A stretch of 64,000 nucleotides of DNA from positions 32,001 to 96,000 of the forward strand of contig JAVCBW010000034.1 of the NCBI GenBank assembly GCA_037917675.1, written 5' to 3'. Made by a program: the position numbers and the translations under genes. Under the pieces are notes generated by a model, which worked only from the letters and a program-made list of their open reading frames with translations, was not told the DNA's origin and searched no databases. This stretch comes from Thermoproteota archaeon (GTDB lineage: Archaea; Korarchaeota; Korarchaeia; B14-G2). The first letter of the stretch is position 1; every line of letters starts with the position of its first letter. Shown piece after piece: positions 14,288 to 27,807 of this stretch.

Positions 14288-15070
14288 CTAAGTGGTGTCA
14301 CCACACACGCAGAAGGCTTCGTTAAGCAGGTCATAAACCTCTCTCAGCCCCTCTCCTGTTACAGCTGAAGCTAGCGCCACCCTGCTTGCTGCCCTATACT
14401 TCACGAGCACCCCAGCTATCTCAGCTGCCATCTCTGCGATGACTCCGCCTGAATCAGACTGCACAGCTTCCATAGCCTCACTCTCATCCATCTCCTCAAC
14501 CATCCTCTTCAGGAGGACCCTCCTGTCATCTGGAAGCACATCCACCTTGTTCAGCACAGCTACCATTGGAGCTTCAAGCCTCAGCTCAACTGCCTTAGCT
14601 AGAGCTAGCGTCAGCACTGTCTCAGCTAAGGTTGATGGGAGAGCTGCATCTATCAGGAAAGCCCCTGCTACCCTAGCGTTCTCCTGGAGGTAAGAGACAA
14701 GCCTAGGCCCAGCCTCCCTGAAGGCGAATATCTCAAGCTGCCCAGGAGTGTCTATCAGCGTGACTCCAGCACCTGAGCTCCAAAGTGGAGCAAGAAGCTC
14801 ATCTGCTGTCTCAGCTATCCTCTCGACAGCTCTGACCTGAGCGCTATTAGGCCCAAGCCCCTCCTCCTTCATGATGCTCCTGACTGTGAAGTGCTCTCTG
14901 ATGTCGTAGTCTGGCTTATAGGGTAGGTACTCTGCTCCAGGATCCAGGTTGACTGCTAGGTGGCTCTCACCTATCTCAGCTAGCAGCTTGCTGAGTGCAG
15001 AAACCATCGTGGACTTACCTGCTCCAGCTGTGCCAAGCAGTAGGACGCATAGCATAGCCACCGCTATCAT
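14288..15070 (-). CDS. GPN-loop GTPase
   Basis: GTAGAGKS, NLDPG, GLGPN, DTPGQ and NKVD motifs. Confidence 0.92.
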   Translation of the reverse strand: MIAVAMLCVLLLGTAGAGKSTMVSALSKLLAEIGESHLAVNLDPGAEYLPYKPDYDIREHFTVRSIMKEEGLGPNSAQVRAVERIAETADELLAPLWSSGAGVTLIDTPGQLEIFAFREAGPRLVSYLQENARVAGAFLIDAALPSTLAETVLTLALAKAVELRLEAPMVAVLNKVDVLPDDRRVLLKRMVEEMDESEAMEAVQSDSGGVIAEMAAEIAGVLVKYRAASRVALASAVTGEGLREVYDLLNEAFCVCGDTT

Positions 15071-15127
15071 GTTATAGCCTCGACAGGCTTATTAACACTT
15101 ATATTTACCTGACCTTATGTCAGCATA

Positions 15128-15844
15128 GTGGTGAGAGGTATGGTGCCTCCGATAATCATGCAGATATGGCAGATGCTGGTAAGCTGGGTTCCAAGGCTGA
15201 TAGCTGTCATCATAATACTGCTGGTAGGCTGGATCATAGGGAGGCTGCTAGGCAAGGGTATCTCAAGGGTGCTTGACAAGGTGGGGCTAGATGATGCTCT
15301 GAGGAAGACCATATTAGGGAAGGCTATAGAGAAGTCTGGGATGAGCATAGTAGGCTTCTTCGACTTGATAGTGAGGCTCTTCGTCTACCTTGTAGCGATA
15401 TTCGCTGCAGTAGACTACCTGGGCATAGAGGTCCTCAGCGCGTACATGAAGGCTGTAGTAGAGTACCTGCCAAGCCTGCTAGCTGGCATCTTTGTGATCA
15501 TAGTAGGCTTCATAGTCTCAGACTTCATAGGGGACACGCTGGCTGCAGTAGGCAAGGAGGCTGAAGTAGCCTATGCCTCGCTGTTCGCTACAGGCCTGAA
15601 GTTCTTCCTCTACTTCATAATAATAGTCATAGGCCTCCAGATGATGAAGATCGACGTGAGCATAATATACCTGTTCGCTAAGGCAGCAGCTTGGGGTGCT
15701 GCAGTAGGCATCGGAGCAGGCTTAGGCATAGCAGTCGGGTGGGGCTTCAAGGACTATGTAGCCAGGAAGGCAGAAGAGTGGACTAAGACTCTATCAGAGG
15801 CGGCAAAGAAGGCAGAGGAGGGTGTTGGCAAGAAGGCTACTTGA
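15128..15844 (+). CDS. TM-helix repeat membrane protein (CmpX / MscS-associated type)
   Basis: Repeated [14 protein letters not shown] and [15 protein letters not shown] helices; [10 protein letters not shown] terminus. Confidence 0.8.
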
Positions 15845-17558
15845 GCATGGGCATTCTGATTCCCTCCTTTTTTACAGTCTGGATTGCCTTCTCATAGCCT
15901 GCGTCAGCATGCCTTACGACACCTATACCAGGGTCTACTGTAAAGACTCTGAGAGCTCTCTCCTCAGACTTCTCTGTACCATCTAAGACTAGGCTGAAGC
16001 CTGCATGTATGCTGTAGCCTATGCCTACTCCTCCACCATGGTGGACTGCGACCCATGTTGCGCCAGCTGCTGTGTTCAAGAGAGCATTGAGTATAGGCCA
16101 GTCTGCTACAGCATCTGAGCCATCCTTCATCCCCTCAGTCTCTCTCATCGGTGAGGCTACGCTGCCAGAGTCAAGGTGGTCTCTACCGACCCATATAGGC
16201 CCAGCTAGCTCCCCTCTCCTTACCATGTCATTTATCATCTTGCCGAACCTAGCTCTCTCACCGAAGCCAAGCCAGCAGACCCTAGCTGGGAGCCCCTGGA
16301 ACCTCACGTGCCTCCTAGCCTTCTCAATCCACCTACACAGCCTCTTGTTGTAGCTGAACTCACTTAGTATCGTGTCGTCGAGAGCATATATGTCCTTTGG
16401 CTCACCAACTAGGCTAGTCCACCTGAATGGTCCTCTACCCTCCTCGAACATAGGCCTTATGAAGGCTTGGACGAACCCTGGGAATGCAAATGCCTCAGCA
16501 TACCCTGCCTCATAAGCCATTCTCCTGATGTTGTTCCCGTACTCGAAGACGACACTGCCCTTCTTAGCGAACTCAACCATTGCTTCAACATGCTTCCTCA
16601 TCGACGCTAGAGCTCTCCTGACATACTCTCGTGGGTCGCTTTGCCTCAGCCTAGCAGCCTCCTCAACTGAAAGGCCTTCTGGGATGTATCCGCTAAGCGG
16701 GTCATGGGCTGCAGTCTGGTCTGTCACGACATCTGGTATCACACCTCTCCTGAGGAGCTCAGGGAATACTGTGGCAGCGTTGCCTAGAAGCCCTATGCTC
16801 AATGGCCTCCTCTTCTCCTTCGCTTCCAGAGCCATGTCTATAGCCTTGTCGAGGTCATCTGTCCACGTGTCTAGGAAGCCATGCCTGATTCTCCTCTCAA
16901 TCATCCTCCTGTCGACTTCAACTATCAGCCCAACGCCTCCATTCATCGTTATCGCTAGTGGCTGAGCTCCACCCATCTCACCTAAGCCAGCTGTCAAGAC
17001 AAGTCTCCCCTCGAGGCTTCCTCCAAAGTACATGTCTGCAGCATACCCGAATGTCTCATAGGTGCCCTGAAGTATCCCCTGTGTCCCTATGTAGTTCCAG
17101 CAGCCAGCTGTCATCTGCCCGAACATTATCAGCCCCCTCCTCTCAAGCTCCCAGAAGTGCTCCCAGGTAGCCCACTTAGGCACGAGCAGAGCGTTGGCAA
17201 AAAGTATCCTAGGAGCCATCTCATGGGTCTTGAACACAGCTACAGGCTTCCCACTCTGGATTACAAGGGTCTCATCAGGCTCCATGGTGAGCAGCGTGTC
17301 TACTATGGCCTCAAAGCACTCCCAGTTCCTAGCTGCCTTCCCAGTCCCACCGTACACAATGAGGTTCTTAGGGTCCTTAGCTACCTCAGGGTCAAGTACA
17401 TTGAATAGCATTCGTAGAGCTCCCTCAATCTGCCAGCTCTTACAGTGGAGCTCAGCTCCCTTGATCACATGAACCTCTCTCTTCTCAGGGTTATAGTAGC
17501 CTTTATCAACCAGAACCTTAAGAGGCCTCGCCTCAACAGCTAAAGCTCTCTCACTCAA
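15837..17558 (-). CDS. hutU: Urocanate hydratase
   Basis: [48 protein letters not shown]. Confidence 0.97.
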
Positions 17559-18207
17559 GCTTACACCAGTCTACAACCATGCCAGCACTTAAAAACATAG
17601 CTGGCAGAGCTACAAAGCTTAAAGCAGGAGCTGGCCTACAGCTGGCATGCTCAAGGTCACAGGAGAGAAGCTCCCAATCTGATGGAGAGGGTACTTGTAG
17701 AGAGCGAAGCTGACGGAACCCATCCTATCTCCTTCGCTTGTGGAGGGATCTTCTACACATAGCTCACTTAAGCTCTCACTCATCAGCTAGCCCTGCTATC
17801 TTAGAGGTCAGAGCTGGCTAGGCTCCTCAACACTATGGCTTGCATCAGCTCTAGCAGATGAGAGAGTAGATGGCATGTTTACTCTATAGGAGCCGATGAG
17901 AGGAGGCTGAGAAGGCTCCCGAGAGCCTTAAGCAGATGGGGCTAGCAGGCTACATGGAGGTGGTGCCCAGAGATGTGAGAGCTGCTATAAGAGGCCTCCA
18001 CCTACTACTCAACTTAGCCTTCATAGGTGGAGGGAAAGAGGAGTACAGCGCCCATCTACGACTCCTGTCAGCTAGGCTCAGGAGGGGGTCTGCTGGCTCA
18101 CAGCGTGATATCACCACACATGAGCTAGCAGGCTTTCTCAGGGAGATGACAGAGGCACGCTGCTGGATGACGACGATACTACCAGCTGGCCAAGCAGGCA
18201 TAAGCTG

Positions 18208-20010
18208 TCAATCAAAGCCTACTGAGCTCTTCGCTACACGTAGGATGTCAGGGAGTGCTTCTCTAACCTTAGCTATGTCTCTGTAGTAGGGGCGGTCTTC
18301 CCTTATCGGGAGGCCTATCAGCCTCCCTATATGGCTGTAGGCTGCTCCTGTCCCTGCTCCGAGGCTGCTGGCGCTCAGCTCTGCTGCCTCCAGCCTCAGC
18401 GATATAGCCTGAGAAGCGTTTAGCAGCTCTATTGCAAGCACCGTCTTCGCGTTCTCTAGGATCTCTCTAGCCTTCAAGGCTGCAGTCATGCTCATACTCA
18501 CATAGTCCTCCTGGTTGGCTGATGTCGGTATGGTGTCTGCTGAGGCAGGGTGTGCTAGCACCTTGCTCTCTGATGCTAGTGCTGCAGCAGTATACTGTGT
18601 TATCATGAGCCCAGACATCAAGCCGCCTCCCTCTATGAGGAATGGTGGCAGCCCCCTGTTTAAGGTAGGGTCAAGTAGCCTGAATGTCCTCCTCTCTGAG
18701 ATCATGCTCACATATGTCAAGGCTATTGCTAGCGTGTCTAATGCGAGAGCTAGAGGCTGCCCATGGAAGTTTGCTCCAGAGATGACCTCCATGCTCTCTG
18801 GGAGGACCAGAGGGTTATCGCTTACAGAGTTTATCTCGACTTCAACTATCTTCCTAGCGAACTCTATGGCCTCTCTCAGCGCGCCATGCACGACTGGAGC
18901 ACACCTTATCGAGTAGGCGTCTTGTACTCGCCCTAGCTCAGCTCTCGTGAAGTCCATGTCTGAGAGGATCTTCTTAGCCTCGCTAGCAGAGCACATGGCT
19001 AGCAGCCTATTCTCTCCTTCAGCATGGACTCTGATCCCTGCTTTAATGGATATGGCTTCAGCTAGCTTAGCTGAGCTCACACCTAAGGCTGAAAGCAGCC
19101 TCCTACTCACCTCAAGCTTAGCTCCACCAGGAGCCTCCTCGAGCTCAGTGAGCTCAGCTAAGCTGAGCCCCATCCTCCTCAGCATAGGATCTGAGCTTGC
19201 CCCTACAAGCCTGCTTCCAGCTAGGAACGCTCTAGCTAGCCTAGCGCTCTCCACCTGCCCGCTATGCGGCCTGAGCTCATGTAGCCTGCTGTCAAGGTGG
19301 TCTGTTGGCGAGAGGAGGGCCTCCATGGTCATCGCAAGCGCTAGGTCAGCTAGCTCAGCTAGAGCCTGGCTCTCATGGAGTAGGAGGCATGCTAAGCCTG
19401 CTGTAGCCTGCGTCCCATTGTTGAGTGCAAGCCCCTCCTTGTAGCTGAGCTCAAGAGGGCCGCCGACCTCTCTCAGAGCACTCTTCAGCTCCTCTCCTCG
19501 GACTCTCCTACCTCTCCAGTAGGCTTCCCCCTCCCCTATCAGAGCTAAGGCCATGTGGGATAGAGGAGCTAAGTCTCCACTTGCTCCAACAGACCCCCTC
19601 TCAGGGACAACTGGAACCAGATCCCTGTTGAGGGCTTCGGCTAAAACCTCTAGCACATGATACCTGACACCAGAGTAGCCTCTAGCAAGAGTGTTTAGCC
19701 TCACTAGCATCATTGCTCGAACAACCTCTCTAGGAAGCTCTCTCCCAACACCAGCTGAGTGGCTGAGGATCATGTTCCTCTGGAGCAAGCTAGCCTCCCT
19801 AGAGCTGACCCTGCTTTCAGCAAGAGCACCAAAGCCTGTTGTAACCCCATATACGACAGCTCCCCCCTCAACTAGCTCAACTAAAGCCTTCCACGCCTCC
19901 TCAACCCTCTCCCGCACCCCCTCAGCTATCTTGACCTCAGCTCTCCCATAAGCAACATCTACGACATCTCTGATGGTTAAGCCCTCTCCACTCACAACCA
20001 CAGCCCTCAA
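18208..20010 (-). CDS. hutH: Histidine ammonia-lyase with large internal insertion
   Basis: YGVTTGFG, LSHSAGVG (His-specific SH), MIO triad GASGDLAP, QDAYSIRC, NQEDYVSM. Confidence 0.93.
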   Translation of the reverse strand: MRAVVVSGEGLTIRDVVDVAYGRAEVKIAEGVRERVEEAWKALVELVEGGAVVYGVTTGFGALAESRVSSREASLLQRNMILSHSAGVGRELPREVVRAMMLVRLNTLARGYSGVRYHVLEVLAEALNRDLVPVVPERGSVGASGDLAPLSHMALALIGEGEAYWRGRRVRGEELKSALREVGGPLELSYKEGLALNNGTQATAGLACLLLHESQALAELADLALAMTMEALLSPTDHLDSRLHELRPHSGQVESARLARAFLAGSRLVGASSDPMLRRMGLSLAELTELEEAPGGAKLEVSRRLLSALGVSSAKLAEAISIKAGIRVHAEGENRLLAMCSASEAKKILSDMDFTRAELGRVQDAYSIRCAPVVHGALREAIEFARKIVEVEINSVSDNPLVLPESMEVISGANFHGQPLALALDTLAIALTYVSMISERRTFRLLDPTLNRGLPPFLIEGGGLMSGLMITQYTAAALASESKVLAHPASADTIPTSANQEDYVSMSMTAALKAREILENAKTVLAIELLNASQAISLRLEAAELSASSLGAGTGAAYSHIGRLIGLPIREDRPYYRDIAKVREALPDILRVAKSSVGFD

Positions 20011-20246
20011 AACACCACCAAAAACCCTCTATCACAGCACCTTATAACTGAGGCCCTAGCTCCAGCATCCATGTTAGCTTTAGCATCAGCCATAGCTCAC
20101 ACTAAAGCTGATGGCAGAAGGCATGGGGAGTACTCTCCATAACTGCATGTAAGCTATGCTGCACCCTTAGCCTCAACTGTAACCTGAGCATCCAGAGGCC
20201 TTATATAGTGCCCTAGGACGCTAAAGAGACGTGGACGAGAAGCTAC

Positions 20247-20833
20247 GTGTGTCGCCACCCCTCAGCTGAGGGATCAGAGTGGAAGCTGATAGCTCCATGT
20301 GGCCTCTACTGTGGTGAGTGCACAGCCTTCCTCAATGGAGAGTGTAGTGGATGTAGAGCTGGTGTTGGGCTAGCTAAGGAGTATAGGAGGCTTTGCAAGA
20401 TTGCCAAGTGCTCTGAGAGGAAGGGTATCCAGGTCTGCATAGACTGTGATGAGTTCCATGTAGGCTCTTTGAGCTCTTCAAGTCTGAGGATCTAGAGTCT
20501 AGTGCTTGGCTCCTAGATGTGTGGGTTAACATGAAGCAGGTCAGGAAGCTAGGGATATCAGAGTTCCTGAGCAGGAGGAGAAGCCGGGTTGAGGAGAGGA
20601 AAGCTTGTGCTAGGAGCATGGGAGTCAGCTTCTGTGACGAGTGTGAAGACTGGCCATGCGACCTGCTAAAGAGGCCTGTACTAGCCCCCATGGACCTCAA
20701 GCTGTTCGAAAGGCTCATGGGGGCACGAGGAGCCCTAGCTGAGCAGAGCTACGAGGTATACCCAACATTTCCAGCGTGTAGGAGCATCATGGAGGTAGCC
20801 TGCCATGCCAGCTCTCTGAGCTCATCTCCATAG
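20247..20833 (+). pseudogene. DUF3795-like Cys-rich protein split by a frameshift (or a sequencing error)
   Basis: APCGLYCGEC..CSGC..CIDCDEF continues as PCRLFELF... if one C is added at 20456-20457, joining ORF 20519..20833. Confidence 0.7.
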
Positions 20834-21036
20834 CTCACTTACACCATAGCCTCTCAGAGGCCTGCGAGGCCATCTCGCAGCTACAGCTGCTGATCACAGG
20901 GCCTCAGCAATGTGGGTCGAGACAGCAGACACTAGCAGCATGCTTGAGTTAGGTGCCGAGTGGGTCCTCTGAAGCCTTTAAGCTGCTTTGGTAGCCTAGA
21001 AAAATTTTAATTATAGCTTAAGCTAGGTCTAGTTGC

Positions 21037-21124
21037 GGCCGGGGTGAGGTAGCCTGGTTAGCCTGGGGGCCTGTGGAGCCCCAAGCCCGGGTTCAAGGCT
21101 ATAGAGAGAGTCCCGGCCCCGGCC
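21037..21124 (+). tRNA. tRNA-His(GUG) with encoded G-1 and a 13-nt intron at position 59/60 (21098-21110)
   Basis: Acceptor GCCGGGG/CCCCGGC plus C73; D stem AGGT/GCCT; anticodon stem GGGGC/GCCCC with loop CTGTGGA; T stem CCGGG/CCCGG; AT-rich promoter near 21000-21015. Confidence 0.93.
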
Positions 21125-21536
21125 CATGCTGCTAGCTGCCTCCCAAGCTTAGCTGAGCACTTAGATCTACCTCATGCAGCTACCATAGCTATGACACCGC
21201 TAGTGGCGCTAAGATATGGGGTTAGAGGTGGTTTTCAGGCTGAACTCGCTTCAGAGGCTGTCAGCCTACTAGGCATCTAGCCTCTATCACAAGCTGCTTG
21301 GAGAGGGAGCTATAGCCCTAGTCAGCACCTTGCTTCAGCTTCCAAAGAGCTACCTTGGTCTGCAGGCTGGGGTGTAGTATTGAGAGGTGAGCTGAGGTAG
21401 CGTAGGAGATGGTGCTTCAGCTGAGGAGTATTAGCTGAGTGCTTTCATAGGTCAGCTCCAGAGTGGGCTTAGGCTGCTCTAGCAGCTCATGCAGCGTGTA
21501 TATGGCTTTTGCTGTTGCTTGGCTCAGCTGGCAACC

Positions 21537-21544
21537 TTTAAATA
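21537..21544 (+). promoter_or_regulatory. TATA box upstream of the hisS operon
   Basis: GCAACC-TTTAAATA; the only strong TATA between the tRNA and hisS. Confidence 0.55.
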
Positions 21545-21574
21545 AGCTGCCTGAAGCCTCCAGGTGGGGTTGGT

Positions 21575-21652
21575 ATGCTGCCAGCTTCTAGAAGGTTTTC
21601 CCTCTCAGCTGTAGTAGCCTCTAGTCTAGGAGGTTTTTGGGTTCATAGCTGA
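21575..21652 (+). CDS. Candidate 25-aa leader peptide upstream of hisS
   Basis: ATG about 30 nt after the TATA; MLPASRRFSLSAVVASSLGGFWVHS*; His is the penultimate codon. Confidence 0.35.
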   Translation: MLPASRRFSLSAVVASSLGGFWVHS

Positions 21653-21708
21653 CGGAGGCTGCCAGAGGAGGTTTCTGCAGTCAGGGAGCCTAGCTTGGAG
21701 GTGTCTGT

Positions 21709-23331
21709 TTGAGCAGGGTGTTTAAGGCTCCACGTGGAACTAGGGACTTTACCCCAGAGGAGATGGCTAAGCGTAGCTATGTTGAGAGGGTCATCAGGAG
21801 GGTCTTTGAGAGCTATGGGTTCCAGCAGGTTCAGACACCGATCTTCGAGGCATTCGCCCTCTTCGCTCTGAGGTCTGGTGAGGAGATAAGGAGCAAGATG
21901 TTTGTCTTCACAGTAGACGGAGAGGAGATGGCTCTGAGGCCAGAGGTGACGGCAGCAGTCTGCAGGATGGTCTCCTCAGGTGAGCTAGACCTGTCTAAGA
22001 AGCCTCTCCGCCTATACTACATAGGGCAGTGCTACCGCTATGAGGAGCCTCAGGCAGGCAGGTATAGGGAGTTCTGGCAGGCTGGAGTAGAGCTCATGGG
22101 CTCACCTAACCCTGAGGCTGACGCTGAGGTCATAGCTCTAGCTGTAGACGTGGTGAGGAACCTCGGGATAAGAGGCTTCGAGCTGAGAGTCGGAGACATG
22201 CGTGTCATGAGAGGCCTCCTAAGCGAATCAGGTGTGCCAGAGGAGGCTCAGAACAGGGTGATAAGCTCTCTGGATGTGCTGGAGAGCAGCATAGAGAAGC
22301 TCTCGCTCTACGCTGACAGGCTCAGAGGCAGCGGAGAGCTTGCTAGAGAGGAGCTAGCTGACCTGGGCAGGAGGCTTGATGAGCTCAGAGCATGGAAGGA
22401 AGAGGAGTATAGGAAGATGTCCTCTGGAGAAAGCGAGCTGCCAGCTAGCTTAGAGCCTCTCCTGGAAGTCGACCCCCTAGTATACAGGGTGAGGGAGCTA
22501 TATGAGAGTGGCAGGAGAGAGGAGCTAGCTGAGCTCATAGAGAAGTCGATCCGAGAGCTCAAGGAAGCCCAGAAGGCAATGTGGGTCTACTATGGAGTAG
22601 AGTATGAAGATGGAGTGGAGGTGAAGAGAGCTAAGCTGAGCACCAGCACAGCTGAGGCTCTCCTCAAGATGATGGACCTACATGGCCCAAGAGACAGCGT
22701 GCTAGATGCTGCCAAAAGCATACTCTCCAGCTATCCCTCAGCTCTAAGAGCCTTAGACGCATACAGAGAGGTCCTAGACCTGCTCCCACACCATGGGGTA
22801 GAGGAGTATGTTGCTGACCTCAGCATAGCTAGAGGCCTAGAGTACTATACTGGGATAGTCTTCGAGATCCACTGCCCATACCTAGGCGCTCAGAAGCAGG
22901 TCTGTGGAGGAGGACGCTATGACAAGCTCGTAGAGGAGTTCGGTGGCCCGAGCATGCCAGCTACAGGGTTCGCCTTAGGATTCGATAGGCTAGTCTTAGC
23001 TATGGAGAAGTCTGGTGTGAGGTTTCCGCCACAGAGGAGAGCAGATGTCTATGTGGCTGCACTCTCAGCTAACATAGTCCCATATGCCATAGAAGTCTCC
23101 AGGAAGCTCAGGGAGGCAGGGGTAAGAGTAGAGATGGACACTATGAGGAGAAGCATCAGGGAGGCGCTTTCCTTTGCATCCAAGATGGAGATGCCGTTCG
23201 TAGCGATCATAGGTGAGAGGGAAGCTGCTGAACACAAGGTCACCTTGAGGATCATGGGTGAGAGAAGGCAGGTCACACTCACCCCAGAGGATGCAGCTAG
23301 CCTAGTAGCTAGCAGGGTGGGATCACGGTAG
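21709..23331 (+). CDS. hisS: Histidyl-tRNA synthetase with enlarged insertion domain
   Basis: PRGTRDF, LRPEVT, motif 2 RYEEPQAGRYREFWQ, RGLEYYTG, GGGRYD, motif 3 GFALGFDRL, C-terminal anticodon-binding domain; SD GGAGGTG at 21697-21703. Confidence 0.95.
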   Translation: MSRVFKAPRGTRDFTPEEMAKRSYVERVIRRVFESYGFQQVQTPIFEAFALFALRSGEEIRSKMFVFTVDGEEMALRPEVTAAVCRMVSSGELDLSKKPLRLYYIGQCYRYEEPQAGRYREFWQAGVELMGSPNPEADAEVIALAVDVVRNLGIRGFELRVGDMRVMRGLLSESGVPEEAQNRVISSLDVLESSIEKLSLYADRLRGSGELAREELADLGRRLDELRAWKEEEYRKMSSGESELPASLEPLLEVDPLVYRVRELYESGRREELAELIEKSIRELKEAQKAMWVYYGVEYEDGVEVKRAKLSTSTAEALLKMMDLHGPRDSVLDAAKSILSSYPSALRALDAYREVLDLLPHHGVEEYVADLSIARGLEYYTGIVFEIHCPYLGAQKQVCGGGRYDKLVEEFGGPSMPATGFALGFDRLVLAMEKSGVRFPPQRRADVYVAALSANIVPYAIEVSRKLREAGVRVEMDTMRRSIREALSFASKMEMPFVAIIGEREAAEHKVTLRIMGERRQVTLTPEDAASLVASRVGSR

Positions 23332-24518
23332 TGAATATAGCTGTAGTAGGGGAGGCAAGCTGTGGCAAGTCGATGCTCATAGGAGCTCTCCTCCATAGCC
23401 TCAGAGAGGTCCCAGATGGGTTCGTGGAGAGGCTCAGGAGAGAGTCTAAGGCTGTGTCTGGAGAGGACAGGGCCTACGCCTACCTGCTAGACAAGAGCAT
23501 GGAGGAGAGGAGGCTAGGCCATACGCTTGAGGTTAAAGCCTGCAAGCCACTAGAGCTCCATGGCACCTCAGTTAGGCTAGCTGACACACCTGGCCTCGAG
23601 AGAGGTGCTCACGGACTCATGTCAGCGTTGATGCAGGCTGATGCAGTCTTAGCTGTAGCAGACCCGACATCACATTCTATAGCTAAGCTAGAGGACTCTC
23701 TCATGACAGCAGCTCTCCTCTCAGTAGACCAGTGTATAGCTGCTATATCCAAGATGGATGCTGTAGGCTACTCAAAGCATGCATATGAGTCTACAGCACT
23801 GAAGATCGAGAGGGCAGCTGATTCAGCTGGCATAGTCCTCAAGGCTATAGTCCCAGTGTCAGCTAGGGAGCTCGAGAACATAGCTGAGCCAGGAGGGAGG
23901 ATGAGCTGGTATAGCGGCCCAACGCTAGCTGAAGCTCTAGCTGAGCTGAGAGAGCCAGAGAGGCACCTAAGCCTCCCAATGAGGCTCCCAGTCCAGAGGT
24001 ACTATGAGAGGCCAAATGTGATAGCAGGTGTGATCGCTACAGGTGTAGCTAAGGTAGGCATGGAGATCGTGCTAGCTCCATCAGGTGCCAGAGGGGTAGC
24101 TGAATCCATTGAGTCATGGGGCACTAGGCTAGAGGAAGCTGAGGCAGGTGAGGATGTTGGAGTCAAGCTCAGGGGGGTAGCGAGATACCAGGTGAAGAGA
24201 GGCTTCCTAGCTGGGCCAGCTGACAGCCCACCTAAGTCAGCTAGAGAGCTCACTGCCAGAGTGCGTGTCAAGGTGCCTGAGGCCATCAGGCCTAAGAGGT
24301 CTCTGATGGCATATGTCCACCAGGCTAGAGCTCAGTGTAGGATTCTAGAGGCAAGCCATGAAGGAGAACACACTCTGCTCAAGCTTAGAGTAGAGGATCC
24401 ACGCCCACTTCCAGTAGACGAGCATATGCCTGTAGTCAGCAGGATAGCTCTCAGAGCCCAGCTGAAGGAGTCATCTAAGACTGTAGCTGGAGGAGTCTGC
24501 ACTGAGGTGGCAGAGTGA
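23331..24518 (+). CDS. Divergent EF-1alpha/EF-Tu-like three-domain GTPase paralog
   Basis: GEASCGKS, LLDKSMEERRLGHT, DTPG, SKMD, PVSA, MSWYSGPTL, RLPVQ, VKRG..PP; GTG start overlaps the hisS TAG. Confidence 0.88.
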   Translation: MNIAVVGEASCGKSMLIGALLHSLREVPDGFVERLRRESKAVSGEDRAYAYLLDKSMEERRLGHTLEVKACKPLELHGTSVRLADTPGLERGAHGLMSALMQADAVLAVADPTSHSIAKLEDSLMTAALLSVDQCIAAISKMDAVGYSKHAYESTALKIERAADSAGIVLKAIVPVSARELENIAEPGGRMSWYSGPTLAEALAELREPERHLSLPMRLPVQRYYERPNVIAGVIATGVAKVGMEIVLAPSGARGVAESIESWGTRLEEAEAGEDVGVKLRGVARYQVKRGFLAGPADSPPKSARELTARVRVKVPEAIRPKRSLMAYVHQARAQCRILEASHEGEHTLLKLRVEDPRPLPVDEHMPVVSRIALRAQLKESSKTVAGGVCTEVAE

Positions 24519-24845
24519 AGGCTACGCTGAAAGCCTACACCTACATGGAGCTCATGAGGTGGTGTTGGATCAGCCCCTAGAGCACAGATGGCTCCATTAG
24601 AAGGTCTGCTGGCAGAGGATTCGTGGCGAGGCTGAGAATATAGCTAGAAGCCTCCAGATAAGAGATTCGTCAGCTCTAGCAGAGCTCACCTCAGCAGGGT
24701 CAGCCATAACGCCAGCTCTCTAGAGGAGGGTGAGAAAGCATACAGGATAGCAGAGCGCTCAGCGAGCAGCCACATGTGATAGCTTCCATGCAGATGAGGC
24801 CTAAGCTGAGTAGCATGGGGTGCTGAGGGCTGCATCCAGCTTGCT

Positions 24846-25436
24846 CTAGAGCAGCCTAGCAGGCCTCCTGAGCTTCGGCTCAACAGGCTTATATGGATAG
24901 GGTTCTCCTAGCCTATCTAAGCTAGCAAGCTCACTGACGTCTCTTCTAGGCGTAGCGCTTGGCTTCTCAGCTGGGTAGCCAACCGAGATTATCGCTACTG
25001 GTATGAGAGGGCGTTTCGCGCCAACAGCTTCAAGAACAGCTTCATCGCTAAAGGCTCCAACCCAGCATGTGCCGAGCCCAAGGCTTGTGGCAGCCAGCAT
25101 GGCGAACGTAGCAGCTATCGTAGCATCCTGGATGCAGTAGAGCACTTCACCACGGCGCCCATATCTCACTCTAGACCTCTCAGGGTTAGCTAGGAAAACG
25201 AGGTCGACTGGAGCTTCAGCTATAAACCACTGCCCGAGAGCAGCTCTAGCCAGCTTAGCTCTAACACTCTTATCTCTCACGACAACTATCTCATAGGCCT
25301 GTAGGTCTCCAGCAGAGGGCGCTGAGTTAGCTGCCTCCAATATGAAGCTGACAGCTTCATCAGAGACTTCCCTATCAGAGTATGATCTGACAGACCTCCT
25401 AGATGCAAGCACATCCACAAACTCCAAGCACATCAC
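24846..25436 (-). CDS. Nitroreductase family protein
   Basis: RRSVRSY, APSAGDLQ, LGLGTCWVGAF, ISVGYP. Confidence 0.92.
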   Translation of the reverse strand: MMCLEFVDVLASRRSVRSYSDREVSDEAVSFILEAANSAPSAGDLQAYEIVVVRDKSVRAKLARAALGQWFIAEAPVDLVFLANPERSRVRYGRRGEVLYCIQDATIAATFAMLAATSLGLGTCWVGAFSDEAVLEAVGAKRPLIPVAIISVGYPAEKPSATPRRDVSELASLDRLGEPYPYKPVEPKLRRPARLL

Positions 25437-25671
25437 CTACAGCCCACAGCAGGTCTCCAGCTGACAGAGGCTACCACCTGGGTAGGAGCCTCAAAGTCAG
25501 ACTCTAGCCCCCTTATAAGCATTCCCTACAGGCGCTACATGCAGCTGACACCCAGGCAGCATCTCAGCTGGAAGATAGGCAGCTGCTAAGATCGCTGCAG
25601 CTCTAGCCTGCTGGCTGCATCTAAGCTAACGTTTTAATGTGTAGCCCTCATGTGATCTCCTGCGGTGTCGT

Positions 25672-27807
25672 GTGCTCATGAGGATGCTGAAGCTTAGGGT
25701 CGCTGAAGCTAGGCCTGAAGACGTCTATAGGAAGCTTGCCAGGCTAAGCCACAAGTCTATGGTTGAGCTCAATGCTGCCAACGGCGACTTCATCGAGCTA
25801 TCCTCACCTAGGGGCGCTGTAGTATGCCAGGCTTGGCATGACCCTGAGGATGAGAGCTCTGACCTAATCAGAGTCGATGGGCATGTGAGGCAGCAGGCTG
25901 GAGTCCGCTTAGGAGAGCATATATCAGTCAGGAAGGTAGATGTCCCTCCTGCCTCAAGGGTCGTGCTAGCTCCAGTCGATCAGGTTGGCTTCGACCTTGA
26001 GCTGGTAAGCTACCTTAAGAAGCAGCTCCTAGGCAGGCCTCTCTCACGTGGCGAGCTCATAGTCATACCTGTATTAGCAGCTGAGCTCAGGTTCCTCGTT
26101 GTCTCAGCACACCCATCTCACACTGTCTACGTAGCAAGCGAGACGAGGCTAGTGATCCGTGGAGCTCCAGCTGAAGCTGTGAGAGGCATCCCAAGGGTCA
26201 CATGGGAGGACATAGGTGGCTTGGAGGAGGCTAAGGCGAAGATAAGGGAGGTCGTTGAGCTACCCATAAGGTACCCTGAGCTCTTCAGACACCTTGGTAT
26301 AGAGCCTCCTAAGGGTGTGCTCCTCTATGGGCCACCTGGCACAGGGAAGACCCTGCTAGCTAAGGCTCTAGCGAACGAGGTTGGAGCATACTTCATATCC
26401 ATCAATGGCCCAGAGATCATGAGCAAGTTCTATGGTGAGTCTGAGGCCAGGCTCAGGGAGATATTTAGGGAAGCAGAGGAGAACGCGCCCTCAATAGTCT
26501 TCATAGACGAGATAGACGCCATAGCTCCTAGAAGAGAGGATGTCACAGGTGAGCTTGAGAAGAGAGTTGTAGCTCAGCTTCTAGCTCTCATGGATGGCTT
26601 GAAGGAGAGAGGGAGAGTCATTGTGATAGCTGCTACAAACAGGGTCAGTGGAGTAGACCCTGCACTAAGGAGGCCAGGTAGGTTCGATAGAGAGATAGAG
26701 ACCCACCTACCAGATAGGAGGGAGAGGCTTGAGATACTCAAGATACACACCAGGAGCATGCCTCTAGCCCCATCTGTCAGGCTGGATGAGATAGCTGAGG
26801 CTACACACGGCTACACTGGAGCAGACCTAGCTGCGCTAGCTAGAGAGGCTGCCATGAACGCTCTAAGGAGGGTTCTCCCAGGAACTGACCTCAGCTCCCT
26901 CAAGGTCACAAGAGAGCTTCTCAGCAAGCTCAAGGTTGAGATGCAGGACTTCCTTGAGGCAATGAAGCACATCCAGCCAACCCTGCTGAGAGAGGTCTAT
27001 GTTGAGGTGCCTGAAGTCCACTGGAGCGACATAGGCGGGCTAAGGTCTGTCAAGCAGGTCTTAAAAGAGTCTGTTGAAGCCCCACTAAGGTACCCTGAGG
27101 TCTTCAAGGAGATGGGTATAGAGCCTCCCAGGGGAATACTCCTCTATGGGCCACCTGGCTGCGGGAAGACCCTGCTAGCTAAGGCTGTGGCAACAGAGAG
27201 TAGGGCAAACTTCATATGCATTAGGGGCCCAGAGCTGCTGAGCAAGTGGGTAGGTGAGTCTGAGAAGGCTGTGAGAGAGGTCTTCAGGAGGGCAAGGCAG
27301 GTAGCGCCATGTGTCGTGTTCTTCGATGAGATAGATGCCATAGCTCCAGCTAGGGGGAGCTCAGACTCATCTGGCGTCACAGACAGGGTTGTCAACCAGC
27401 TTCTCACAGAGATGGATGGCATAGTCCCACTGCAGAACGTCATAGTCTTGGCAGCAACCAACAAGCCTGAGGTGCTTGACCAGGCTCTCCTCAGGCCAGG
27501 GAGGCTTGAGAAGATCCTCTATGTGCCTCCACCAGACATAGAGGCTAGAATAGAGATATTCCAGATACACACCCGGAGGATGCCTCTAGCTGAGGACATA
27601 GACTTCAAAAAGCTAGCAGAGATGACCGAGGGATACACAGGTGCAGACATAGCTGCAGTGTGTAGAGAGGCTGCGATGATAGCTATAAGAGGAGAATACA
27701 AGCTTAAACCTGTGGAGATGGAGCATTTCACCCAGGCGATAAGGGTGGTTCCTCCATCTCTCAGCAGCAAGCCATGGCTCCAGCAGCAAGCATGCAGCCA
27801 GCTCTAA
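25672..27807 (+). CDS. cdc48: CDC48/VAT/p97 AAA+ ATPase
   Basis: N domain plus two AAA modules ([16 protein letters not shown]; DEID; RPGR). Confidence 0.95.

Follow-up and report, generated by a model that had tools for sequence, protein, structure and literature searches.

Introduction

SelB and eEFSec are EF-Tu-family factors dedicated to one aminoacyl-tRNA, with a re-tooled aminoacyl pocket; SelB works on the ribosome by means of an mRNA-binding C-terminal extension and retains the catalytic histidine of the family. A different route is taken by MM1309 (aSelBL), which is reported to have a closed architecture, to prefer GTP and to protect Cys-tRNA(Cys); the GTPase of this EF-Tu-family paralog is disrupted, and the protein was proposed to guard this one aminoacyl-tRNA instead of acting in elongation in the classical sense. 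Its gene context is described as mostly unconserved, with only occasional MetRS or AlaRS neighbours. On the side of the synthetases, archaeal LeuRS (Methanothermobacter) is reported to bind EF-1alpha with a rise in kcat of about 8-fold, and in eukaryotic aaRS:eEF1A pairs a synthetase is likewise bound to an EF-1alpha-type factor, such that turnover is raised and charging is coupled to hand-off. The partner in these complexes is the general, catalytically competent EF-1alpha, with no dedicated paralog, gene coupling or special docking domain known. HisZ and the HisRS-like domain of Gcn2 represent cases in which the histidine/HisRS system has been rewired into non-canonical regulatory complexes, the recruited inactive part being a synthetase paralog. 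Finally, CysN, the GTPase subunit of ATP sulfurylase, is listed as a derivative of archaeal EF-1alpha that was taken out of elongation and made part of an adenylate-forming enzyme (Atkinson 2015).

The module described here consists of two genes, hisS and a downstream EF1A-like gene (EF1AL), encoded in about 2.8 kb; no description of such a hisS-EF1AL system was found in print. Like aSelBL, EF1AL is an EF-Tu-superfamily paralog with an apparently disrupted GTPase, a predicted closed, GTP-type architecture and a possible role as guardian of one aminoacyl-tRNA. Unlike aSelBL, which is SelB-derived, it scores 51.9 bits on the selB model vs 194–212 bits on EF-1alpha models, forms an operon with the cognate synthetase in every case seen, and is matched by an extra domain in that synthetase. 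It has neither the C-terminal extension nor the catalytic histidine of SelB; it differs from the partner of LeuRS in being a separate, apparently GTPase-dead paralog specific to one synthetase, the contact being a predicted one; and it branches apart from CysN, whose partner is CysD. In contrast to HisZ and Gcn2, an elongation-factor paralog has been recruited, whereas HisRS keeps its core and anticodon-binding domains.

Layout of the locus

The window, i.e. the whole stretch of 64,000 nucleotides that was analysed, holds the following features.

15837-17558, minus strand: hutU, urocanate hydratase (TIGR01228, 890.3 bits vs cut-off 375)
18208-20010, minus strand: hutH, histidine ammonia-lyase, 600 aa (TIGR01225, 569.4 bits vs cut-off 539.15, in two stretches)
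21037-21124, plus strand: tRNA-His(GUG), G-1 and C73 encoded (manual reading; ARAGORN after T-loop deletion)
21527-21666, plus strand: conserved non-coding block 5' of hisS (77% identity to sister genome G001 over 144 nt)
21709-23331, plus strand: hisS, 540 aa (TIGR00442, 387.6 bits vs cut-off 286.75)
22231-22743, plus strand: enlarged insertion domain of hisS, about residues 175-345 (alignment lengths, AF2 model)
23331-24518, plus strand: EF1AL, 395 aa, three-domain (EF-1alpha model scores, motifs, AF2)

All five elements named by the sequence-only reading (hutU, hutH, tRNA-His(GUG), hisS and an EF-1alpha-like gene) were found where it had placed them, and the TAGTG junction it had pointed out could be read directly: hisS ends with ...CGG TAG, and the GTG of the next ORF starts on the G of that stop. 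Most of the spacer upstream of hisS is not alignable with G001; the block 21527-21666, which is alignable and holds TTTAAATA at about 21538, is probably the hisS promoter and leader. The TTG start of hisS is in register with the N-termini of 9 relatives.

That 21037-21124 encodes tRNA-His(GUG) proved correct, although ARAGORN called no tRNA on the window as it stands and Rfam (E ≤ 1) none in 15000-26000. Both missed the gene because of a 13-nt insertion in the T-loop, within 21097-21111, which is a non-canonical intron. The region reads as G-1, acceptor stem, D arm, GUG anticodon arm, T arm and C73, giving a cloverleaf with the extra G-1 opposite C73. A script removed 8-21 nt at each position of the region and submitted the variants (about 315, counted from the loop bounds) to ARAGORN; 116 deletion variants gave a tRNA call, in 116 of 116 cases tRNA-His(gtg). 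In G001 both exons are identical, and all 6 differences lie inside the insertion (21098-21108). A TATA-like TTTTAATTATA precedes the gene by about 25 nt. No further tRNA-His gene was detected in the genome by ARAGORN or blastn. At 9 other loci no tRNA-His was found adjoining the module; its place beside hisS thus holds here, but as a neighbour in this genus only.

The histidine catabolism genes present a similar picture. Both hut genes score above their equivalog cut-offs; hutH diverges from the tRNA-His/hisS/EF1AL side and carries a lineage-specific insertion of about 90 aa, hutU is 94% identical in G001, and hutI resides elsewhere in the window's genome, G000 (425.4 bits vs cut-off 298.15). 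The linkage of hutU stands for this locus, but its adjacency is limited to this genus, and in 4 of 5 Bathyarchaeia genomes searched hutU lies on other contigs. The association with hutH reaches further: 9 of 9 module genomes have the gene, 7 of them next to the module. Genomes that lack the module often carry hutH too, however (46 of 244 other Bathyarchaeia genomes).

An enlarged histidyl-tRNA synthetase

As to copy number, which the sequence-only reading had proposed to count, hisS is the sole histidyl-tRNA synthetase gene of G000, and it is single-copy also in G043-G047. The TIGR00442 match, above cut-off, is split in two stretches around an insertion; the class II core (PF13393) is followed by an anticodon-binding domain (HGTP_anticodon, PF03129, residues 446-534), and core blocks such as RYREFWQAG and GGGRYD, which we take to be class II and HisRS signature motifs, are invariant in 10 of 10 sequences. 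The hisZ model TIGR00443 is narrowly passed as well (280.4 vs 271.65); identity as HisZ was rejected, as the protein does better on the hisS model, has an anticodon-binding domain and is encoded by the only hisS of the genome.

The special feature of this enzyme is the region of residues 170-350, which comprises 181 aa here. The range in 12 ordinary HisRS is 74-83 aa, and the protein of the metagenome locus L189 has 145 aa. The insertion is ~100 residues longer than in ordinary HisRS and is made up of long helices and a small hairpin; in the AF2 model (like all AF2 models here, built on 10-row alignments) the extension has a pLDDT of 88-95, with helices at 178-207, 213-238, 246-266 and 270-295. 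About residues 220-353 are unmatched by solved HisRS chains, in which the insertion domain sits over the active site.

EF1AL, an offshoot of archaeal EF-1alpha

Against the EF-1alpha models TIGR00483 and NF008969, EF1AL reaches 193.6 bits (cut-off 540.1) and 212 bits (cut-off 502), respectively. Identity as canonical aEF1A was rejected on account of these scores, the loss of the catalytic histidine and a position outside the canonical clade; CysN was rejected with 142 bits vs 336.1, hisS and a nitroreductase as neighbours and a separate CysN clade (100), and SelB/aSelBL with 51.9 bits vs 242.25 on TIGR00475, far under the EF-1alpha scores. In the tree, which leaves out aSelBL sequences, 30 canonical aEF1A form one clade without EF1AL (SH-aLRT 99), and EF1AL together with P0011 forms its own (99); this and the HisRS tree below are quick LG+G4 searches in which long branches and compositional outliers were flagged. 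A grouping with CysN or another known family, named beforehand as the outcome that would speak against a novel factor, was thus found neither by model scores nor by the tree, and an archaeal CysN/CysD pair in G023 is separate from the EF1AL family. The separate canonical EF-1alpha whose presence was to be confirmed lies on another contig (C57, 623.9 bits), and one is present in every module genome examined. The source labels for the EF1AL proteins read 'elongation factor 1-alpha', 'GTP-binding protein' or 'hypothetical protein'.

The motifs of the window's EF1AL are the P-loop GEASCGKS, the switch-I Thr, DTPGL, SKMD and SA. Across the linked proteins GxxxxGKS/T is kept in 10 of 10, NKxD or SKxD in 9 of 10 and SA in 10 of 10, while the catalytic histidine of DxPGH is replaced in 10 of 10, by L in 7 and by M, I and Y in the others. 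Because the nucleotide motifs are kept and the catalytic His is replaced, EF1AL is probably a GTP-binding protein that is not switched off by the ribosome. In some members, to judge from their motifs, nucleotide binding may even be dispensable, because the G023 copy lacks NKxD (NLKE) and two copies carry N instead of D in DxPG.

Further changes affect motifs that, by comparison with EF-Tu structures, presumably line the aminoacyl pocket. In domain II, D → R in PxQDVF and N → D in GDNVG are family-invariant; H → W in IEMHH occurs in the core clade and in 3 of 5 deeper proteins examined, together with a 3-residue loop deletion. Canonical-invariant positions are kept in the clade at 41 of 87 sites in the G-domain, 12 of 38 in domain II and 10 of 33 in domain III, so that the tRNA-body surface is poorly conserved. 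Domain III is ~20 residues shorter in G000 and G001. The AF2 model (pLDDT 82.1, pTM 0.83) has the three-domain EF-Tu/EF1A fold and superimposes with a TM of 0.87 on GTP-form aEF1A complexes (3wxm, 3vmf) vs 0.46-0.49 on GDP forms.

The leading analogy of the sequence-only reading was SelB, i.e. a true specialised elongation factor that brings His-tRNA(His) to the ribosome. The full EF1A fold in its closed form would suit such a role, and the deepest linked member, the L189 protein, which is identical to a Theionarchaea protein and keeps GHVDHGKS, DAPGH and NKMD, could still act in this way. For the window's clade, however, the analogy fares badly: the catalytic histidine, whose mutation in EF-Tu abolishes ribosome-stimulated GTP hydrolysis, has given way to a hydrophobic residue throughout, fewer than half of the canonical-invariant G-domain positions are retained, a canonical EF-1alpha is always at hand, and with only one tRNA-His gene found there is no known second tRNA species for a special factor to serve. 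A SelB-like elongation factor is thus very improbable here.

Linkage, co-occurrence and inheritance

The pairing of hisS with the paralog, whose conservation had been put forward as a test, is found in every relative examined. In 9 of 9 genomes with an EF1A-like protein at least 36% identical to that of the window (G000, G001, G043-G047, G067 and G083), hisS lies directly upstream of EF1AL on the same strand, with a start/stop overlap or a gap of ≤72 nt; more distant members are paired in the same manner in G023 and at L189. Within the window's phylum, 3 of 43 genomes (G000, G001, G023) encode an enlarged HisRS, exactly those with the downstream EF1A-like gene; 37 others match the HisRS flanks only, and 3 have no hisS match. 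EF1AL occurs in 7 of 251 sampled Bathyarchaeia genomes, and a query with the insertion only retrieved the same 7 plus one marginal match (E=9.6e-4). In the surveyed genomes the HisRS extension thus occurs only alongside EF1AL. The module genomes are few and related, and perhaps two to four independent lineages are represented.

The 10 linked HisRS group together (SH-aLRT 97; 95 without the insertion columns), in a clade whose internal branching is the same as in the EF1AL tree, and placing the window's HisRS among its phylum-mates is rejected with an AU p=0.00074, for a group chosen after the tree had been seen. The phylogenies indicate that the module has been inherited as a unit and transferred between archaeal phyla.

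One could regard EF1AL as a decaying or neutral EF-1alpha duplicate that hitch-hikes beside hisS, with its lost histidine, its low scores on all curated models and its shortened domain III as signs of decay. This is already contradicted by the selection and co-occurrence data and hardly deserves credence: EF1AL is under purifying selection, with dN/dS of 0.21 (vs G001), 0.15 and 0.25 (0.11-0.17 for hisS in the same pairs), the reading frames are intact at all 11 loci, many residues are clade-invariant, the co-occurrence with the extension is exact, and the arrangement has persisted in lineages between which HisRS identity is only 43-59%. Together, hisS and the EF1A-like gene form a unit that is conserved, under selection and apparently undescribed.

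The genes 3' of the module vary, with an opposite-strand nitroreductase in the window's genome and an additional ORF of 129 aa in G001; four Bathyarchaeia loci (L063-L066) share a downstream ORF that starts MPASVEIINTGNELL, and L147 has a near-identical one. This bears on the suggestion that EF1AL keeps His-tRNA(His), or an acyl-tRNA modified from it, out of translation and hands it to an acceptor other than the ribosome, e.g. an aminoacyl-tRNA-dependent transferase. Sequestration would fit a GTP-locked carrier with an altered pocket, in which the canonical D of PxQDVF is Arg in every member, and the commonest neighbour, hutH, removes the alpha-amino group of histidine. On the other hand, no candidate transferase is conserved beside the module, and hutH is accompanied by hutU, with hutI also in G000, such that a normal catabolic pathway is available; diversion is thus considered improbable.

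The predicted HisRS-EF1AL complex

Binding between HisRS and the paralog, one of the two interactions on which the sequence-only reading depended, is supported by a controlled complex prediction: ipSAE is 0.63 (runs 0.59, 0.63, 0.63), while the best of 3 controls gave 0.00. The pair thus passes the mark applied to this score, which is reached by 58 of 80 solved complexes and by 2 of 110 mismatched pairs, counts that hold only roughly for models from our own alignments. With a partner pLDDT of 86, the runs share at least 90% of contacts, which connect HisRS residues 220-259, in the extension, with EF1AL residues 28-61, 226, 229 and 284-286. The predicted interface residues are no more conserved than background in either protein (EF1AL 0.48 vs 0.43, the former value being reached by 2977 of 10000 random sets; HisRS 0.56 vs 0.57). 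On EF1AL, the interface corresponds to the switch-I/domain-II face, which adjoins the presumed aminoacyl pocket. Because of this proximity, the extension might, in the model, occupy the acceptor-end site of EF1AL and not feed it.

Such a geometry lends itself to a reading in which EF1AL never carries tRNA and serves as a regulatory pseudo-GTPase subunit of HisRS; bound to the extension through its switch, it would tune aminoacylation by guanine-nucleotide or histidine status and partition histidine between charging and Hut catabolism, much as HisZ, a HisRS paralog, regulates HisG. The predicted contact does involve a nucleotide-sensitive face near the pocket, the tRNA-body surfaces are poorly conserved, G023 retains the arrangement with a copy devoid of NKxD, hutH accompanies the module in all nine genomes of the linkage set, mostly as a neighbour, and histidine metabolism provides a precedent for translation proteins recruited as regulators, HisZ models matching this very HisRS family. 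The pocket motifs, however, have been swapped for family-invariant residues and have not drifted, which suggests that a ligand is still bound there; the pairs in G023 and at L189 have no adjacent hutH, G023 having none at all, and many Bathyarchaeia have hutH and no module. A purely regulatory subunit is an unlikely explanation, albeit one to be taken seriously.

Proposed role

The reading preferred here, to which we give about an even chance, is that EF1AL is a non-hydrolysing, EF1A-derived subunit of HisRS that would capture or guard His-tRNA(His). The insertion domain of HisRS, about 100 residues longer than usual, has become a helical platform, and EF1AL, an ancient archaeal EF-1alpha offshoot translationally coupled to hisS, would be a stoichiometric HisRS partner docked on it via its switch-I/domain-II face. 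It would probably bind GTP and not be switched off by the ribosome. In its GTP-like closed form it may receive the aminoacylated 3' end as His-tRNA(His) leaves the synthetase, or shield it, in a pocket apparently re-tooled with family-invariant residues, and so serve as a HisRS-bound guardian or hand-off factor, not as an elongation factor. As a benefit, His-tRNA might be protected or prioritised in cells that also degrade histidine via HutH. The sequence-only reading, in which an undescribed His-tRNA handling system was suspected, is as a whole partly supported.

A wider picture may be sketched tentatively, and we think it somewhat doubtful as a whole. Together with the enlarged HisRS, EF1AL would represent a third kind of EF-Tu-family system specific to one amino acid, besides SelB and aSelBL: an obligate holoenzyme of synthetase and factor, in which an EF-1alpha derivative locked in the GTP state and blind to the ribosome is anchored on a purpose-built HisRS domain and takes His-tRNA(His) directly from the active site. 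As a mobile cassette, the module would take the place of the resident hisS in different archaeal phyla. Its evolution would have been stepwise, a GTPase-competent form (Theionarchaea type) preceding the GTPase-dead ones, and it would serve to secure or meter histidine for translation in cells that consume histidine via HutH.

Implications

EF1AL constitutes a subfamily derived from EF-1alpha that the 2015 census of translational GTPases does not list in the passages covered (Atkinson 2015); current annotation labels hide the family. To judge from its motifs, it would join aSelBL as a second EF-Tu-family protein to have given up GTP hydrolysis. The module also suggests that an essential synthetase gene is replaceable across phyla when it travels with a partner. 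It is a long-standing question whether aminoacyl-tRNA is channelled from synthetase to elongation factor or diffuses freely, and the aaRS:EF-1alpha contacts known so far are made by the general factor and difficult to dissect. Here, the predicted contact seems permanent and specific: a single synthetase carries a docking domain that matches an EF-1alpha derivative dedicated to it. A small, expressible two-protein system is thus at hand, with which the hand-off of a single aminoacyl-tRNA, its protection and its regulation would be measurable.

Layout of the locus

The window belongs to contig C21 of a genome assembly of 1.78 Mb (62 contigs, 92.7% complete), and the features of its histidine locus are compiled below, EF1AL denoting the EF-1alpha-like protein encoded directly after hisS, and "module" the hisS-EF1AL gene pair.

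Features of the histidine locus (coordinates, strand, identity)
14288-15070, minus: GPN-loop GTPase (PF03029), ordinary archaeal housekeeping gene flanking the locus upstream
15837-17558, minus: hutU; TIGR01228, 890.3 bits (cut-off 375)
18208-20010, minus: hutH, 600 aa; TIGR01225, 569.4 bits (cut-off 539.15)
20247-20495 and 20519-20833, plus: two short DUF3795 ORFs, with the N-terminal and C-terminal parts matched, respectively
21037-21124, plus: tRNA-His(GUG); sequence reading, and ARAGORN after removal of an insertion
21527-21666, plus: non-coding block of 140 nt directly upstream of hisS, 77% conserved relative to the sister genome G001
21709-23331, plus: hisS, 540 aa; TIGR00442, 387.6 bits (cut-off 286.75), in two matching stretches
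23331-24518, plus: EF1AL, 395 aa; best models EF-1alpha, 193.6 and 212 bits
24846-25436, minus: nitroreductase, between EF1AL and the following gene
25672-27807, plus: putative CDC48-type double AAA ATPase (read from sequence), ordinary housekeeping flank downstream

The five elements that the sequence-only reading had recognized between 15837 and 24518 (hutU, hutH, tRNA-His, an enlarged hisS and a coupled EF-1alpha paralog) were borne out by model scores and sequence reading, as was the overlap of the last two genes, the last G of the hisS stop serving also as the first base of the GTG of EF1AL (…CGG TAG TG…). The two DUF3795 ORFs may be one broken gene; the equivalent spacer of G001 gave no DNA match to them. 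The 140-nt block, which holds a TATA-like TTTAAATA, may represent the hisS promoter and leader; unlike the block, the remainder of the 580-nt spacer upstream of hisS is not conserved relative to G001. A promoter/terminator scan of the bacterial type gave sites no more numerous than in shuffles.

EF1AL, a separate subfamily linked to hisS

The EF-1alpha models that EF1AL matches best have cut-offs of 540.1 and 502 bits, and its scores with CysN (142 bits, cut-off 336.1) and SelB (51.9 bits, cut-off 242.25) are likewise low. A separate canonical EF-1alpha is present in the same genome on contig C57 (L001, 623.9 bits); its G4 motif reads SKMD, not NKMD, a variant shared with EF1AL of the window's genome (G000) and of G001, which may reflect convergence or gene conversion. 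In a quick LG+G4 tree of 51 rows, in which long branches and compositional outliers were flagged, 30 canonical archaeal EF-1alpha proteins form a single clade (SH-aLRT 99) and CysN another (100), while EF1AL stands apart from both, clustering with nine other hisS-linked proteins and the database protein P0011 (99); P0013, P0015 and P0016 (99) and then P0017 and P0018 (91) join this group in a broader clade of paralogs. Model scores and tree together rule out an assignment of EF1AL to CysN, SelB or canonical EF-1alpha. At E ≤ 0.001, an exhaustive HMMER search covering 1.84 billion representatives retrieved 5396 proteins, of which only a handful exceed the canonical level of ≈ 150-175 bits, led by P0011 (274 bits, 41% identity to EF1AL) and P0012 (265 bits, 42%), with P0013 at 205 and P0015 at 173 bits; P0011-P0018 all remain under the curated EF-1alpha cut-offs, which the canonical P0019 passes. 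A word-indexed protein search with EF1AL found one close relative, a sister-genus protein, and the ESM Atlas, queried with the protein of the metagenome locus L189, gave generic EF-1alpha clusters only. In a genome of the survey, the EF1A-like frame at G040:C22:7207-8214 is broken by two TGA and one TAG codons and may be a pseudogene or a case of recoding.

Among 43 genomes of the window's phylum, close EF1AL proteins occur only in G000 and its congener G001 (79% identity), the others carrying canonical EF-1alpha at ≈ 30-34% identity. A scan of species-representative genomes added five Bathyarchaeia MAGs (36-43% identity), and EF1AL was found in 7 of 251 sampled Bathyarchaeia genomes, at no less than 43% identity to the protein of the Bathyarchaeia locus L064 (353-918 bits; next best 38%, 230 bits). 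In all nine genomes hisS directly precedes EF1AL in the same orientation; stop and start overlap in seven (G000, G001, G044, G045, G046, G067, G083), and in G043 and G047 the gap is short or the start uncertain. The pairing noticed in the window is thus a conserved one, although the evidence comes from MAGs of a few related lineages. Two distant pairs extend it. G023, a member of the window's class, has an enlarged hisS that a very divergent EF1A-like ORF overlaps, and at L189 hisS is overlapped by the gene of a P0017-like protein with GHVDHGKS, DAPGH and NKMD retained; this protein, from the single locus of its type seen, is identical to an NCBI "hypothetical protein" of a Theionarchaea MAG. 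No hisS adjoins the match in the other 74 genome-scan loci (L067-L140, canonical EF-1alpha or CysN level). A metagenome scan with the EF1AL alignment, whose patterns were generic, gave at least 80 loci, those listed having no more than 33% identity, a level typical of canonical EF-1alpha or CysN; among the 80 matches listed, hisS is adjacent at L189 and at none of the other 79. A second EF1A-like ORF of G023 (L150, G023:C18, 5500-7522, minus strand, 398 aa, intact GHVDHGKS) was rejected as a member of the subfamily: it lies directly downstream of a CysD-like ORF and is therefore an unrelated archaeal CysN. Five Bathyarchaeia loci (L063-L066, L147) carry the same ORF of 264-275 aa directly after EF1AL, beginning MPASVEIINTGNELL in L063-L066 and MPGSVEIINTGNELL in L147, which has no counterpart in the window and which, from its N-terminal motif, might encode a CinA/MoCF-type protein.

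The HisRS extension and its predicted contact with EF1AL

The special feature of the linked histidyl-tRNA synthetase (HisRS) is an enlarged helical insertion: residues 170-350 comprise 181 aa in the window and the equivalent region 145 aa in L189, against 74-83 aa in 12 ordinary HisRS of the two lineages (the window's phylum and Bathyarchaeia). The extension is restricted to EF1AL bearers. In the window's phylum the query matched through the insertion only in G000, G001 and G023 (37 genomes matched by the flanks only, three not at all), and a query of the 122 insertion residues alone recovered from the Bathyarchaeia sample the same seven EF1AL genomes and one marginal match (E = 9.6e-4). A word-indexed search with the insertion found only the protein itself and one 74%-identical protein, too little to show how the insertion is distributed. 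In G000 and five Bathyarchaeia genomes there is no hisS besides the enlarged one, which therefore encodes the housekeeping enzyme. In the AF2 model, built like that of EF1AL on a shallow alignment, the extension (pLDDT 88-95) folds into helices 178-207, 213-238, 246-266 and 270-295 plus a small hairpin. None of the solved HisRS structures covers it, sequence matches leaving ≈ 220-353 unmatched; in structural comparison, chains of 372-448 residues come closest, with TMq 0.50-0.61.

Prediction of the complex of full-length HisRS with EF1AL gave an ipSAE of 0.63 (runs 0.59, 0.63, 0.63) as compared to 0.00 for the best of three controls; that mark is attained by 58 of the 80 complexes of solved structure, as against 2 of the 110 mismatched pairs, counts that are only a rough guide for the 10-row alignments used here. 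The partner has a pLDDT of 86, and the runs share at least 90% of their contacts. The confident contacts involve HisRS residues 61-62, 66, 111 and 220-259 (the extension) and EF1AL residues 28-42, 55-61 (switch-I region), 226, 229 and 284-286 (domain II, with the clade-invariant ARY among them). EF1AL is thus predicted to dock on the HisRS extension, in agreement with the independent co-occurrence result, whereas the conservation of the contact residues, no higher than background in both proteins, lends it no support. No solved HisRS:EF complex is known to us, so that a pass owed to a structure already learned by the predictor seems unlikely.

Co-inheritance of the module

The ten EF1AL-linked HisRS form one clade in a quick tree (SH-aLRT 97; 95 without the insertion columns), and their branching is that of the EF1AL tree: (G043, G067), (G046, G047), (G083, (G044, G045)), then G000, then G023, with L189 outside. 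HisRS of the window shares 55-59% identity with the linked Bathyarchaeia HisRS and only 38-47%, in the flanks, with the enzymes of its phylum. Forcing G000 and G023 to group with the rest of that phylum costs 76.5 log-likelihood units (AU p = 0.00074), the tested group having been chosen after the tree was seen. The simplest reading is that the module is a cassette that crossed phyla and displaced the hisS already present; the pattern may instead go back to ancient paralogs that were lost differentially.

A tRNA-His with a T-loop intron

ARAGORN found no tRNA in the whole window, nor did Rfam at E ≤ 1 between 15000 and 26000. By reading, however, 21037-21124 provides G-1, a 7-bp acceptor stem, a D arm, a GUG anticodon arm, a T stem and C73, with a T-loop of 20 instead of the usual 7 nt, i.e. 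a 13-nt insertion. A script removed 8-21 nt at successive positions (315 variants, counted from the loop bounds); 116 variants gave an ARAGORN call, and all 116 were tRNA-His(gtg). G001 carries the same gene between hutH and hisS with both exons identical, all six differences falling within 21098-21108, inside the insertion. Because of these GUG calls and the exon identity, the tRNA-His proposed earlier is real, with a 13-nt non-canonical T-loop intron. Many tRNAs of this genome contain introns, and neither ARAGORN nor blastn detected a second tRNA-His. The single-strand fold of the unspliced region gave an uninformative z of -1.76. Due to the intron, standard tRNA finders and Rfam miss the gene, and in automatic annotation the genome would seem to lack tRNA-His. 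As part of a hub, the tRNA holds for the window's genus, where it adjoins the module; it was not found beside the module in nine other loci.

Histidine catabolism

The proposed link to histidine degradation stands for hutH, which adjoins the module in seven of nine genomes (on other contigs in G046 and G047); it does not for hutU, adjacent in the window's genus only and located elsewhere in four of five Bathyarchaeia genomes searched. The orientation of hutH varies: it is divergent from the module in G000 and G001 and convergent with it in G043 and G067, while in G044, G045 and G083 it precedes the module in the same direction. Only two of the 43 genomes of the window's phylum, G000 and G001, possess hutH; in the Bathyarchaeia sample 53 of 251 genomes do, namely all seven that carry the module plus 46 of the remaining 244. 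G023 has none, though the hisS-EF1AL-like pair is present. The association is therefore genuine without being obligatory, among genomes that are related to one another. A shared histidine auxotrophy was discarded as the common factor, there being no consistent pattern (hisD was found in G000 and G001, not in the three Bathyarchaeia genomes searched, which may be incomplete). In G000, hutI lies elsewhere, and a second aromatic amino-acid ammonia-lyase homologue (G000:C5:8296-9807) scores 511.6 bits, just under the hutH cut-off. The 600 aa of the window's HutH are explained by an insertion of ≈ 90 residues (≈ 272-358), conserved in G001 (609-aa frame) and without counterpart in the TIGR01225 model and Bathyarchaeia HutH.

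Possible role of EF1AL

EF1AL is under purifying constraint, with dN/dS of 0.21 (G000/G001) and 0.15 and 0.25 (Bathyarchaeia pairs), the values for hisS in the same pairs being 0.11-0.17. The module is conserved, selected and co-inherited. Among the ten linked proteins the P-loop and the SA motif are intact in all, the switch-I Thr and N/SKxD in nine each (G023 has NLKE for the latter), and two carry N in place of the D in DxPG, while the His of DxPGH is replaced in all ten, by L in seven and by M, I and Y in the others; at the level of sequence, the catalytic His has been lost. Of the positions at least 90% conserved in canonical EF-1alpha, the clade keeps 41/87 in the G domain, 12/38 in domain II and 10/33 in domain III. 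Across the wider paralog family D to R in PxQDVF and N to D in GDNVG are invariant, and in the core clade and P0013, P0015 and P0016 so are H to W in IEMHH and a 3-residue loop deletion. The three motifs presumably line the aminoacyl side-chain pocket, as in EF-Tu ternary complexes; if this mapping holds, the pocket would be re-tooled, not decayed. The AF2 model (pLDDT 82.1) has its three domains in the closed arrangement; TM is 0.87 against aEF1A complexes carrying GTP and 0.46-0.49 against the GDP forms. These features suggest that EF1AL is maintained, yet not as a ribosomal GTPase.

A dedicated elongation factor of the SelB kind, as considered in the sequence-only reading, is unlikely for the window's clade, with the catalytic His replaced throughout, and possible for the GTPase-intact Theionarchaea type of L189. 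The closest functional precedent appears to be aSelBL/MM1309, described as an EF-Tu-family member of closed architecture that prefers GTP and protects Cys-tRNA(Cys) (PMC3037878, PMC4329189), with a gene context reported as mostly unconserved (PMC3037878); the closest physical one is the LeuRS:EF-1alpha complex (PMC2094089). As far as these accounts go, both differ from the module in lacking a dedicated EF-1alpha-derived paralog operonically tied to the synthetase and a matching docking domain. A 2015 census of translational GTPases gives aEF1A, aGTPBP, aIF2gamma, aSelB and aSelBL for archaea and no EF1AL-type subfamily, although its supplementary tables might include such sequences (PMC4342817). 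Searches of open-access full texts yielded no description of a HisRS-linked EF-1alpha paralog or of an enlarged archaeal HisRS insertion.

The main rival explanation is that EF1AL is a purely regulatory pseudo-GTPase subunit of HisRS. On the favoured reading, EF1AL would bind GTP without hydrolysing it and, docked on the extension, would hold or hand on His-tRNA(His).
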